Shown here one piece after another: positions 1,195 to 8,724 of a DNA stretch of 64,000 nucleotides. The notes under the pieces are model-generated. The model was not told the origin of the DNA, did not search any database, and was given only the letters and a program-made list of their open reading frames with translations. This DNA is from Candidatus Thorarchaeota archaeon (GTDB lineage Archaea; Asgardarchaeota; Thorarchaeia; Thorarchaeales; Thorarchaeaceae). The stretch covers positions 14,504 through 78,503 of the forward strand of contig JBHLRQ010000003.1 in the NCBI GenBank assembly GCA_048882385.1. Reading direction: 5' to 3'. The position numbers and the translations under genes are program-made. Numbering within the stretch: position 1 is the first letter of the stretch; each line of letters opens with the position of its first letter.

Positions 1195-2274
1195 ATGTCA
1201 GCGGAGCGACACAGGCTTAGACGAAAGGTAGAACAGCTTAAAGCCTACCAAGGACGTCATAGTTCATTCACGACATTGTATGTTCCACCTTCCAAGAACC
1301 TCACTGATGTTATCAACTTTGTAAAGACTGAACTCGCAGGTGCTGAGAACATCAAAAGCAAGGCAAATCGCAAGAATGTATCAGACAACCTTACAGCAAT
1401 TCTCAGTGAGCTAACGAAAATTCCTGAAATACCTCAAAATGGTCTTGCTTTCTTCTTTGGAGTTGAAGAGGAAGGTGGCACTGGTAATGATATTAGAGAA
1501 CTAGTGGTTCCACCCACTCCTATATCACAGTTCATTTATCTCTGTGGAAGAGAATTTGTTACGGAAGAACTTGAGAATATGACCAAACCAAAGAGCTTGG
1601 TCGTGATAGTCCTGATCGAGGGCGGGAAAGTTACTATTGGTTACCTTCGTGGAAAACATATGGAACTCGTTCGAGACGAAGATTTCTACATCATCGGCAA
1701 AACAAGAGCCGGAGGTCAGAGTGCAAAGAGGTACATGCGGCTTCGTGAAGAGAAGATGATGGAGTTCTTCAAGTATGTGGGTCGAATGCTCAACAATCTT
1801 CTGCTTGAAGATTTAGATAATGTTGATGCAATTGTACTTGGTGGAAACACAATTCGTTGCCAAGAATTTCTGGAAAAAGGGGACCTCGATTATCGACTTC
1901 GGGAAAAAGTAGCTGAAACGATCATCCCTGTAAGTATTATCGATGAAACTGGTCTCTATCAAGCAATGAAAGAAGCTTCTCGAGTTCTTCGTGAAACTGA
2001 AATCTATGCAGAGCGCCAGACTTGGGATCAGTTTGTGGAAGACCTTATGAAAGGCCTCAATACTGTGACCTACGGAAAAGACGAAGTCATGAGTGCTCTT
2101 CGGCAAGGTCGCGTCGATACTATAATGGTACTTGAGGATTTAGCAGACCAAATGGATGAACTTTATGACGAGATCGGAACATATGGTAGCAAAATGTTAG
2201 TTTTCTCGAATCAGACAGAATCTGGAGCGCAATTGAAATCTTTCGGTGGAATGGCAGCGCGTCTACGGTGGTAA
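1195..2274 (+). CDS. prf1: Peptide chain release factor aRF1 (eRF1 family)
   Basis: NIKS, YxCxxxF (YLCGREF) and GGQ (RAGGQSAKRY) motifs; C-terminal FGGMAARLRW; start 1195 follows an AGGTGA SD. Confidence 0.9.
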   Translation: MSAERHRLRRKVEQLKAYQGRHSSFTTLYVPPSKNLTDVINFVKTELAGAENIKSKANRKNVSDNLTAILSELTKIPEIPQNGLAFFFGVEEEGGTGNDIRELVVPPTPISQFIYLCGREFVTEELENMTKPKSLVVIVLIEGGKVTIGYLRGKHMELVRDEDFYIIGKTRAGGQSAKRYMRLREEKMMEFFKYVGRMLNNLLLEDLDNVDAIVLGGNTIRCQEFLEKGDLDYRLREKVAETIIPVSIIDETGLYQAMKEASRVLRETEIYAERQTWDQFVEDLMKGLNTVTYGKDEVMSALRQGRVDTIMVLEDLADQMDELYDEIGTYGSKMLVFSNQTESGAQLKSFGGMAARLRW

Positions 2275-5420: not shown

Positions 5421-6497
5421 CTATAACTTTCGTTTTCCTAGAAGGAATTGTTCTACCCATCTCTCAGCTTTGTACATAGTTGTTGGAGTTGGGGGCATTT
5501 TGAATCCATATGCAGAAATTGACTCAAGAGATCCAGCAAGGCCTCTCTTTAGAGCAAGTTTTGTACCACGTATAGCATCCATGAGAATTGGTCCTGCATT
5601 AGGTCCATCAGTCACTTCCATTCTGATGTCAATCTTGATGGGTGCTCCACCAAACTGACGCCCATTGATGTAGAAATAGGAATCTCGAGCATTGTCCATG
5701 AATTCAACCCAATCTGATGAACCTGCAACAATAGGTGCATCATATGGAAGGTCTTGTCCTACAGCCTCGCTTTTCACTCCTCTCTTTCTCAAACGACCTC
5801 TATAATGAGAATCTATTGATTCTGCTCCTCCACCAATATCTAGCTGGTAGCTCTTGTCTACCTTCACACCTCTTGAAACTAATAATTGCAGTATATTCCT
5901 GTGAAGAACTGTGGAGCCAAGCTGATCTTGAATGTCATCTCCGACTAACGGGAGTCCTTTCTCTTCAAATTTCTTACTCCATTCGAGATCTGAGGCGATA
6001 GGAATGGGTGTGCCATTGATGTATGCACAACCCGCTTCGAGAGCCGCATTAGCATAGTACTTTGTAGCTTCCTCTGCAGAACCAGGAATAAGGTTGATGA
6101 GAATCTCAGCTCCGGAGTCTTTGAGAACTTTAGCAACATCGACGTCCTTTGCTTTAGATTCGGTAACAAGCGCCTTTAGCATATCATCAAGACCATCAAG
6201 TGCTGGACCCTTCATGACCTCGATACCTGTTTTGGGAACCTTTGCGAATGCCATTACATTGTTAGGTTTGGCGAATATCGCATCCGCCAGATCAGTACCT
6301 ACTTTTGTGTCAGCTACATCAAAAGCTGCAACAAACTTGATATCCTTGACATGATATCCTGCGAAGTCTGGATGTCCAAGACCTACCATCTGCTTGTCTG
6401 CTCGTGCATCTTTGTAGAATTCAACACCTTGTATAAGTGCACTAGCACAGTTTCCAACTCCAACTATTGCAACTTTTATTCCATTCAAATAAGCCAC
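5421..6497 (-). CDS. ino1: myo-inositol-1-phosphate synthase
   Basis: VAIVGVGNCASALIQG, VGDDIQDQLGSTVLHR, SYQLDIGG, DGPNAG motifs. Confidence 0.92.
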   Translation of the reverse strand: MAYLNGIKVAIVGVGNCASALIQGVEFYKDARADKQMVGLGHPDFAGYHVKDIKFVAAFDVADTKVGTDLADAIFAKPNNVMAFAKVPKTGIEVMKGPALDGLDDMLKALVTESKAKDVDVAKVLKDSGAEILINLIPGSAEEATKYYANAALEAGCAYINGTPIPIASDLEWSKKFEEKGLPLVGDDIQDQLGSTVLHRNILQLLVSRGVKVDKSYQLDIGGGAESIDSHYRGRLRKRGVKSEAVGQDLPYDAPIVAGSSDWVEFMDNARDSYFYINGRQFGGAPIKIDIRMEVTDGPNAGPILMDAIRGTKLALKRGLAGSLESISAYGFKMPPTPTTMYKAERWVEQFLLGKRKL

Positions 6498-6570
6498 CTC
6501 TGGTTCTAGCTTTGCGATTTCCTGTACATTTCTTATAAGTTATTCTATACACATAGAATAGTTAGGTCCC

Positions 6571-6585
6571 CGAAGAACTTATGTT
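6571..6585 (+). promoter_or_regulatory. BRE/TATA-like promoter for the putative ncRNA
   Basis: CGAAGAA followed by CTTATGTT, about 25 nt upstream of the structured region starting at 6605. Confidence 0.45.
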
Positions 6586-6604
6586 GGTATGTTGCACTTA
6601 TTAT

Positions 6605-6850
6605 GGTTGGACGAAAGGCTTGCGCTCATATGCTCCCGCGTCATCGAAAGTCGTGGGAATGACGCAACCGCGTTGAAAAAGCAATACGAATGTCCATCTG
6701 CAGGGAGATTCGGCTCCTACCCAATAGGGTTCAGGGAGATGCTGACACAGCGTGTGCATTGGAGCACCACTCATGTTTAAAAGTAAAAGAGGGTGGACCT
6801 CGAGCCCGAAAAAGGGCACCAAGTCTTAGGCGTAAAGCCTTCGTCCACCT
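6605..6850 (+). ncRNA. Putative structured non-coding RNA (~245 nt), family unidentified
   Basis: GC-enriched intergenic tract; 6605-6625 pairs with 6830-6849 (~19 bp incl. a G-U pair); several internal hairpins; followed by a TTTTT tract. Confidence 0.7.
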
Positions 6851-7021
6851 TTTTCTAGCAAAACTATCCAGTGGATGAGTTTATAGGCAGTTCAAACAAT
6901 TCAAAGAACAGCAGTGCCCTCAAATTGAATCATAAGCTCCAGAGTTCCAGGCACAGCTTTGCGATCACTGAAGAAGATTCTACTTTTGGACGCCTGCAGA
7001 ACACAGTGAACGTGAGTTATC

Positions 7022-7504
7022 ATGGGTTATCAAGAGAGAGAACCAATCGAGGCCGTAATTTCTGATCTCAAACCAAGGATGAAGAGTGTTAATATCTCAT
7101 TCAAAGTTATCGAGAAAGGTGAAGTTCGAGAAGTAACATCCCGCGCAGATGGAGAGCAACATCGTGTATGCGACACTATTGTTGGAGACAGCTCTGGGAA
7201 AGTTACTGTGCCCCTATGGGATGCCTCAATTGATGAAGTTGAAGCTGATAAAACCTACAGACTAGAAAATGGATATACTACCCTCTTTCAGGGTCATCTA
7301 AGATTGAACATCGGTCGATATGGTACACTGAAACCAGCTGAGGAAGAGATTGCTGAAATCAACGATGAAGTCGACATGTCTGAGCAAGAACATGAACGCA
7401 GACCTCGATACGGTGGTTATCGCGGAGGCGGACGACGTGGCGGTGGATACAGAGACCGTGATCGTCGTGGTGGCGGCGGACGAGACTTCAGTCGAGGATA
7501 CTAA
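7022..7504 (+). CDS. ssb: Single-OB-fold ssDNA-binding protein (crenarchaeal-type SSB) with RGG-rich tail
   Basis: ISDLKP..VN...VGDSSG.V..LWD...NGY..LFQG.LRLNIGRYG; Gly/Arg-rich C-terminus. Confidence 0.88.
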   Translation: MGYQEREPIEAVISDLKPRMKSVNISFKVIEKGEVREVTSRADGEQHRVCDTIVGDSSGKVTVPLWDASIDEVEADKTYRLENGYTTLFQGHLRLNIGRYGTLKPAEEEIAEINDEVDMSEQEHERRPRYGGYRGGGRRGGGYRDRDRRGGGGRDFSRGY

Positions 7505-7560: not shown

Positions 7561-8724
7561 CTATTTTGCTAAATTTTCCGCAACAATGTCTACAACATCA
7601 ACTACCCGTATATTACTCCCTTCAATCTCAACACCTGCTTTGAGGTTGCTCTCACAGAACGGACATGCTGTTGTAATGATTTCAGCTCCCGCCTCAAATG
7701 CAGTTCTTACACGATCTACAGCCATCCTTTTCGAGAGTTCAGGATCGTATGATCGAAGACCTCCTCCAGCACCACAACACATTGCAGCCTCTCGATTGGT
7801 TTCCATTTCTACAAATTCAACATTAGGGATCGCCTTTATTATCTCCCTTGGATTGTCATAGACTCCAGCAGCTCTAGATAGATGACATGGATCGTGATAT
7901 GTTATCTTGATTTTCTTCTCTAAGGGATTTAATCCGAGCTTCTTTTCTTTGACTATTTCCTGAAGTGCTTCGGTCACATGGAGAATTTCAGGAAGGTGGA
8001 TATCGAGCTTTGGGTAGTCATTACGAAGCGTCTTCAAACAACCTGCACAAGTCACAATAATCTTCTTAGCTCCAGAATTCTTAATGACTTCTGCAAGCTT
8101 CTCAGCAATCTTCCTAGCATCGTTAGTCCTTCCAGTTCGTAACATCACACTTCCACAACAGGGCTCATCCTCGAGGACTGCAAAATTGATGTCAGCCGCC
8201 TTGAGAATCTTCACCGTTGACTTGGCAATATTGGGAAGTCGAATTCCAGCTGTGCAACCAGTGTAGTAGATAACCTCTCCAGCAGAGGGAACTTCGAAAC
8301 CAACTTCTTTGACCCAATCACGTTTGAGCTGTGTGTTTTCCTCGTATGGATTGTCGAACTGCATGATTCTCTGTGCAATTACATCACGAGTTTCATTAGG
8401 AATGTCACTCAGGACTGCTCTCACCTTTTCTAGACATTCTGAGGGATCAAACTCTGCAACACAGATTTCAGTACAATTTCCACACAGTGTACATGTGAAC
8501 AGCGATTCTGCATTTTCCGAAGTCTTCTCAAGGGTTCCATCGAGAAGAGCTAGGGCAACCTGTATTCTCCCACGCATGAAGCTGGTTTCAAATCCTTCAG
8601 AGTTTCTCCATACAGGACAGACTCCATCAAATCCTCTGTCCTCGTAAACTGCATTCCGACAGATGCCACATCTACGACATTGCATCAAGTTCTCGACTAG
8701 TTCTTCTAGATCAATCTCCGCCAT
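7561..8724 (-). CDS. Fe-S/CCG-domain oxidoreductase subunit (GlcF/HdrD-like)
   Basis: CxxCGxC, CTLCGNCxxxC, two CCG domains, YHDPCHL. Confidence 0.9.
   Translation of the reverse strand: MAEIDLEELVENLMQCRRCGICRNAVYEDRGFDGVCPVWRNSEGFETSFMRGRIQVALALLDGTLEKTSENAESLFTCTLCGNCTEICVAEFDPSECLEKVRAVLSDIPNETRDVIAQRIMQFDNPYEENTQLKRDWVKEVGFEVPSAGEVIYYTGCTAGIRLPNIAKSTVKILKAADINFAVLEDEPCCGSVMLRTGRTNDARKIAEKLAEVIKNSGAKKIIVTCAGCLKTLRNDYPKLDIHLPEILHVTEALQEIVKEKKLGLNPLEKKIKITYHDPCHLSRAAGVYDNPREIIKAIPNVEFVEMETNREAAMCCGAGGGLRSYDPELSKRMAVDRVRTAFEAGAEIITTACPFCESNLKAGVEIEGSNIRVVDVVDIVAENLAK

Follow-up and report, generated by a model that had tools for sequence, protein, structure and literature searches.

A structured RNA gene, which we regard as very probably real and independent of its neighbours, lies between ino1 and ssb in this Candidatus Thorarchaeota genome. 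It occupies positions 6609–6846 on the plus strand of the window, by which we mean the whole stretch of 64,000 nucleotides that was analysed, and a short tail and T-tract carry it on to 6854. The best explanation, to which we assign a probability of about 0.42, is that a gene standing on its own encodes a stable structured RNA that acts in trans, belongs to an undescribed family and likely serves as the protein-binding scaffold of a small RNP. Found in only one family of Thorarchaeota (Asgard archaea), the RNA represents, judged from its sequence, a new structured RNA family that matches no described RNA family. An earlier note on this DNA had proposed an independently transcribed and possibly undescribed RNA at 6605–6854, where the sequences that it quoted are indeed present. 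That proposal is supported by the single copy of the element, its covariation, its promoter box and T tract and the lack of an Rfam match, the transcript itself being predicted from sequence. Among the refuting outcomes named in the earlier note that could be checked, none occurred. The locus is organised as follows.

5421–6497, minus strand: ino1 (myo-inositol-1-phosphate synthase), the divergent neighbour, with Pfam PF01658 and PF07994 (Inos-1-P_synth).
6533–6540, minus strand: CTTATAAG box, about 40 nt before the ino1 start, its core the same as that of the box before the RNA.
6572–6583, plus strand: promoter-like element, a purine-rich stretch followed by a CTTAT(G) box at 6578–6582, 31 nt before GGAC.
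6609–6846, plus strand: RNA element (tail and T-tract to 6854), defined by fold, covariance model and covariation.
6847–6854, plus strand: 3' tail ACC followed by TTTTT, a T/C-rich tract and the likely transcription stop.
7022–7504, plus strand: ssb, the downstream neighbour in this genome, separate from the RNA, with Pfam PF21473 (Ssb-like OB).
7561–8724, minus strand: CCG/4Fe-4S (CCG/Fer4) gene.

The G+C content is about 0.50 across the RNA element versus 0.38–0.46 in its flanks. Folding of the plus strand between 6600 and 6856 gave a minimum free energy of −99.8 kcal/mol, compared to a mean of −74.4 ± 4.6 for 200 dinucleotide shuffles, none of which was as stable (z = −5.49); the minus strand also folded better than its shuffles (z = −3.65). 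An alignment of 26 sequences (A2) with a hand-drawn structure was turned into a covariance model of 251 positions and 60 pairs (R1), and the 77 matches of this model, which range from 224 to 265 nt among orthologues, were aligned to it (A4), yielding 56 distinct sequences. Across these 56 sequences, standard pairs filled 91.9% of 3221 cells, versus 36.8–50.4% when the 3' partners were slid by 1–3 columns. Compensatory, both-sided changes were found in 51 of the 60 pairs across the family, together with 157 further pair types, and none of 500 shuffles matched the alignment on any of five pairing measures. As A4 was fitted to the drawn structure, it favours that structure, but the slid controls and the 157 further pair types far exceed this effect. 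The same covariation picture was obtained with an alignment of 39 sequences. The fold, which comprises nine helices, is under selection. Moreover, G-U or U-G combinations occupied 302 cells within the 60 pairs versus 38 for A-C or C-A, and only 83.7% of cells would pair if the minus strand were read; the RNA is therefore encoded on the plus strand, which the earlier note had favoured. The conserved parts of the fold, all on the plus strand, are these.

6609–6614 with 6841–6846, plus strand: P1a, 5' strand GGACGA with UCGUCC; GGAC/GUCC nearly invariant.
6616–6625 with 6830–6840, plus strand: P1b; both-sided changes in all 9 pairs.
6632–6636, plus strand: conserved GCUCC, candidate long-range helix with GGAGC at 6761–6765.
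6638–6644 with 6659–6665, plus strand: P2 hairpin; both-sided changes in 7 of 7 pairs, 90.4% paired, loop variable.
6669–6754, plus strand: P3 domain, in which P3 and P3b enclose P4 and P5.
6669–6674 with 6749–6754, plus strand: P3; 6 of 6 pairs compensatory.
6680–6682 with 6741–6743, plus strand: P3b; 3 of 3 pairs compensatory.
6687–6695 with 6704–6712, plus strand: P4 hairpin, CGAAUGUCC with GGAGAUUCG; 99.1% paired, sequence near-invariant.
6715–6722 with 6727–6737, plus strand: P5 hairpin (domain 6715–6737); lower stem 100% paired, 4 of 4 pairs compensatory.
6762–6772 with 6791–6801, plus strand: P6 hairpin; 95–98% paired, little variation.
6804–6807 with 6814–6817, plus strand: P7 hairpin, GCCC with GGGC; 4 of 4 pairs compensatory.

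The ends of the RNA are locked in the 16-bp terminal stem P1. The still longer terminal stem drawn in the earlier note was borne out for 6609–6614 with 6841–6846 and for 6616–6625 with 6830–6840, both of which covary, but not for its outermost GGU/ACC pairs, which are specific to this genome. Covariation also upheld the helices GCGTCAT/ATGACGC (compensatory changes in 7 of 7 pairs), ACCC/GGGT, CCACTC/GAGGGTGG and GCCC/GGGC that had been read from the letters. An overlapping TCCCGCG/CGTGGGA helix, suggested as a pseudoknot or switch, was not supported, being paired at 75.2% versus 71.2% when slid by one column, and two local hairpins, GGAG/CTCC and GCTG/CAGC, had to be given up, their strands belonging to the strongly covarying P4 and P5 and to the long-range P3 and P3b.

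Within the P3 domain, the sequences of P4 and P5 are almost invariant across all genera, beyond what pairing requires. P4 contains a purine-purine mismatch (6692/6707), which is G-G in 39, A-A in 8, G-A in 4 and A-G in 3 of the 56 sequences, and P5 carries a 3-nt bulge, UCA at 6731–6733, in 55 of the 56. P6 is less certain than the other helices. One of its U-G pairs is kept in 52 of the 56 sequences, and its A-rich loop starts with a conserved UCAYGUUCA, while its 5' strand is missing in one genus (g4) and its 3' strand in another (g5). P7 is deleted in three genomes of the source's own genus and is dispensable. GCUCC (6632–6636) and GGAGC (6761–6765) are 98.4% complementary in the 56 sequences and may form a long-range helix, which RNAalifold prefers to the base of P6; they are almost without variation, too little for covariation to prove this pairing or to decide between it and the P6 base. 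Other interactions were considered and set aside. A pairing of GGGUGGAC with the 3' tail GUCCACCU was 91.9% complementary, but its mismatches were uncompensated and no shuffle fell below it. Dimerisation by kissing of palindromic P4 loops was not sustained, as a palindrome of at least 4 nt was present in 31 of 56 loops, mostly one inherited CUGCAG, and many loops had none. An all-against-all covariation scan for tertiary pairs produced only signals confounded by phylogeny.

The signals flanking the element resemble those of a transcription unit of its own. The CTTAT box proposed as a promoter-like site lies 31 nt before GGAC, and a purine-rich stretch with a box of the NCTTAT or CTTAA type was found 30–32 nt before GGAC in all 39 orthologous loci. 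Similar boxes occur at −42 to −26 before 9 of 19 tRNA genes of the genome, versus 95 of 2000 random 60-mers, and T-rich boxes also lie about 30 nt before the RNase P RNA and SRP RNA genes. At the other end, oligo-T stops archaeal transcription, and the T run noticed directly behind the element belongs to a T/C-rich tract that follows GUCC(A/C)C immediately in 39 of 39 loci. No conserved open reading frame was found in the element among the 39 orthologous loci, where the longest frames vary from locus to locus in strand, reading frame and end points. With promoter and terminator signals, no open reading frame and a conserved covarying fold, the element has the properties of a stand-alone structured ncRNA gene, a generic class and not a homology family. 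Among sequencing runs recorded as RNA, none was found to contain this DNA.

No known RNA family was recognised. At gathering scores, Rfam 15 yielded no match anywhere in the window, nor did it at E up to 10 over 6450–7050, and a search of 15 diverse orthologous loci at E up to 0.1 returned only a 29-bit chance match to a viral element, outside the RNA. The covariance models of archaeal RNase P RNA (RF00373) and archaeal SRP RNA (RF01857) do not match the locus; the genome's own RNase P RNA (C4:50377–50718, 164.2 bits) and SRP RNA (C9:50812–51122, 95.1 bits, just below the 96.5 cut-off) are encoded elsewhere. ARAGORN found no tRNA or tmRNA gene in 6300–7100, so that the earlier exclusion of RNase P RNA, SRP RNA and tRNA holds. 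A C box (RUGAUGA) with a D box (CUGA) marks C/D RNAs and an ACA three bases from the 3' end marks H/ACA RNAs; the C box and the 3' terminal ACA were each present in 0 of 56 sequences, no K-turn was seen by eye, and no known protein-binding motif was recognised in the element. A TROVE/Ro60 gene (PF05731) was not found in the source genome, which is 95.3% complete, and there was no Rfam match to a Y RNA. A literature search found no description of the RNA in result listings and the beginnings of abstracts. The main text of 2026 preprints on atlases of prokaryotic intergenic RNAs does not mention Asgard, Thorarchaeota or inositol; their supplementary cluster tables may contain the RNA.

Two observations on stable RNAs were made in passing. 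The source genome lacks an assembled 16S rRNA gene, and ARAGORN detected only 19 tRNA genes with a full upstream flank in it; its set of stable RNAs is therefore incomplete. In a family member, G110 (L131, about 1404–1520, minus strand), the 16S rRNA has about 90 extra bases between the conserved ...CCGTAGCGG and CTGCGGATGGATCACCTCCT near its 3' end, and these may represent an insertion or intron.

The element is single-copy in its own genome, where all other DNA matches have E > 1. When 61 relatives were searched at the DNA level, matches were clear within the genus (71–86% identity) and weaker in three further genera; an absence in G025 was only apparent, as its contig ends inside P4. Applied to 151 genomes of the phylum, R1 detected the RNA in the source genome and in 23 of 26 others of the same family, representing 13 of 14 genera, with one copy per genome (G020 also has a second piece at a contig start), and in none of 124 genomes from 26 other Asgard families. 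A shorter core model from P3 to P6 (R2) gave the same split, with nothing outside the family; a weak R2 match in G001 falls inside an ORF of 217 aa and was dismissed as chance. In 41 genomes of another class, the best R1 match had E 0.34, on 24-nt fragments. A degenerate pattern of P4 and P5 was found at 59 loci among 185,579 species (one genome each), 40 of which match R1, and the titles of these 40 read Candidatus Thorarchaeota in 28 cases, Promethearchaeota in 5, uncultured archaeon in 5, archaeon in 1 and Hermodarchaeota in 1. The other 19 loci all have bacterial titles and are about as many as expected by chance. The locus titled Candidatus Hermodarchaeota (L066 229–465) is a typical copy of the RNA, with 145.2 bits and very like those of Thorarchaeota genus g4; its title may be a mislabel. 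Among metagenome contigs, 25 of 68 pattern matches fit the model, and the single pattern match among viral contigs does not.

The three family members without an R1 match are G170, which is 81% complete and also lacks ino1, and G036 and G152, both of the small-genome genus g10. In G036 (L125 212–1501), a gap of about 130 nt separates the end of the CCG/Fer4 gene from ino1 and contains neither the RNA nor ssb, an arrangement that looks like a clean deletion or the ancestral state. A search with filters off found no RNA next to ino1 in either g10 or the sister family f2. An ino1 tree rooted on the sister family, which is a single-gene tree with weak support (82/88), places g10 inside the RNA-bearing genera. 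This position hints that the RNA may have been lost in g10 rather than gained late, and would make it dispensable to some lineages. A second ino1-like gene, of 42–47% identity, is present on another contig in the relatives G025, G036, G152 and G037 (L127–L130).

In 36 of 39 orthologous loci, ino1 lies upstream of the RNA on the opposite strand; the remaining three are L023, which has only 82 nt of upstream sequence, and L050 and L054, which are rearranged. The CCG/Fer4 gene is downstream of and convergent to the RNA in 36 of 39 loci, and ssb is downstream in 19 of 39. Where ssb is missing, the CCG gene comes directly after the RNA and in L057 starts at the next base. As CCG and ino1 adjoin each other also where the RNA is missing, the linkage of ino1 and RNA may reflect an inherited gene order and not a functional connection. 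Annotation of the genes at the locus revealed no partner gene for the RNA in its neighbourhood. Between the RNA promoter and the CTTATAAG box, which is probably the ino1 TATA box, there is a perfect palindrome, ATTCTAT-ACAC-ATAGAAT (6542–6559). Many of the orthologous loci have its half-site ATAGAATAG in the corresponding position. The palindrome probably serves as an operator for ino1, the RNA or both; the genome has only 4 strict copies of it, and thus there is no regulon to read.

From these data we infer a discrete RNA of about 245 nt that acts in trans. Its own BRE/TATA-like box would drive transcription from a start at or within a few bases of 6606–6609, and transcription would stop in the T-tract at 6850–6854. 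The long P1 would protect the RNA ends, and the body, as covariation shows, folds into P2, the P3/P3b domain with the almost invariant P4 and P5, then P6 and the dispensable P7. The putative recognition surface would consist of three parts: P4 and the purine-purine mismatch in it, P5 and the UCA bulge that it carries, and the loop sequence UCAYGUUCA. Sequence-conserved helices, non-canonical pairs and invariant bulges typify sites of protein or tertiary contact in SRP, RNase P and Y RNAs, and it is because P4 and P5 are conserved beyond pairing, with a non-canonical pair and an invariant bulge, that we favour an RNP scaffold, a mechanism proposed tentatively and at somewhat less than even odds.

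Two other modes of action deserve weight. The RNA might be a trans-acting regulator whose conserved single-stranded parts, with the 3' tail CCACCUC, the UCAYGUUCA loop and GCUCC as candidates, pair with mRNAs. Its tail resembles the anti-Shine-Dalgarno end of 16S rRNA, CACCUC being present also at the 3' end of a family member's 16S rRNA (...GGAUCACCUCCU), and is complementary to an AGGUGG overlapping the ino1 start region; the divergent arrangement with ino1 and the palindrome between both promoters would also suit such a role. The match to the 16S tail is only 6 nt, however, and the tail differs among genera (CCCCAU, CCCCCU, CACUUC). In addition, a covarying fold of 60 pairs far exceeds the needs of known base-pairing sRNAs, and the ino1 adjacency may be inherited, the CCG-ino1 pair persisting without the RNA. 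We therefore consider a base-pairing regulator unlikely, at around one chance in five. Somewhat less probable still is an RNA acting alone, as a ribozyme, ligand sensor or self-assembling RNA in the manner of OLE, raiA, ROOL and GOLLD. A fold of several domains and junctions, in which helices are invariant, loops are A-rich and a non-canonical pair is conserved, is what such an RNA could look like, and no partner gene is nearby, but no catalytic or ligand-binding motif of any Rfam family was recognised and the kissing of P4 loops, with palindromes in only 31 of 56, failed as a means of dimerisation.

Explanations that do away with a new trans-acting RNA fare much worse. A cis-acting leader or riboswitch could belong to ssb, which is next on the same strand in this genome, or to ino1, as on the minus strand the element stands about 110 nt before that gene and folds better than shuffles. 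With ssb downstream in only 19 of 39 loci and the next gene mostly convergent in the other 20, the RNA is not an ssb leader; nor is the element an ino1 leader, since a separate CTTATAAG box for ino1 lies between the element and the start of that gene. The excess of G-U over A-C cells rules out the minus strand, and the plus strand has its own promoter box and T-tract, all of which leaves a leader very improbable. Equally improbable is that the RNA belongs, as a strongly diverged member, to a known family (RNase P, SRP, Y RNA, tmRNA, C/D or H/ACA). A terminal stem closing both ends, a length of 224–265 nt and a U-rich end are common to several of these, but the negative Rfam, ARAGORN and box searches, the absence of a TROVE/Ro60 gene from the genome and the presence of RNase P and SRP RNAs on other contigs speak against it. 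Least probable of all is a remnant of a mobile element (MITE) or another element acting as DNA. The terminal inverted repeat would fit it, but dispersed copies, which the earlier note had named as a sign of a MITE, do not exist: the element is single in its own genome and in each relative, syntenic in 36 of 39 loci and not on viral contigs (one pattern match, no model match), and its compensatory changes preserve RNA pairs including G-U.

The stable, trans-acting structured RNA with a scaffolding role thus remains our preferred reading. A bolder version of it, rather unlikely at present, would make the RNA the core of a new RNP or RNA machine that arose within Thorarchaeota and is not a regulator of its neighbour genes; if true, it would represent a functional RNA class of a new kind, with a catalytic or scaffolding role of its own. 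That only one family has the RNA speaks against a core housekeeping role. As a covariance model, 56 aligned distinct sequences and exact predictions of both ends are at hand, the RNA is directly usable for transcription, probing and as bait.

To our knowledge, few complex structured RNAs are known from archaea besides rRNA, tRNA, RNase P RNA and SRP RNA. Like archaeal SRP RNA (RF01857) and RNase P RNA (RF00373), the Thorarchaeota RNA would be stable, with a length of a few hundred nucleotides, its own promoter, a terminal stem and conserved blocks in helices, and in SRP and RNase P RNAs such blocks inside helices are protein or catalytic sites. Unlike them it is not universal, as it is confined to one family and missing from g10, and both of those RNAs are encoded elsewhere in the same genome. 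It has in common with the Y RNA bound by Ro60 a U-rich 3' end and a long conserved terminal stem in which both ends of the molecule pair, but its body is much more structured and no TROVE/Ro60 gene was found in the genome. Trans-encoded archaeal sRNAs such as Methanosarcina sRNA162 are likewise expressed from free-standing intergenic genes with their own promoter and T-tract; they work through short stretches of base pairing, and little of their structure is conserved, in contrast to the 51 of 60 covarying pairs seen here. To the orphan structured RNAs of bacteria the likeness is one of kind. With OLE, raiA/ModT, ROOL and GOLLD the RNA shares no sequence or model similarity, and it differs from them in its archaeal (Asgard) host and its length of 224–265 nt, and from OLE also in having no linked partner gene comparable to the OLE-associated genes. 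Like all of them, however, it is a stand-alone gene for a multi-helix covarying fold, limited to one lineage and recognised through genome comparison ahead of any known function, and bacterial RNAs of this kind have proved to be a ribozyme, the core of an RNP or a self-assembling RNA.
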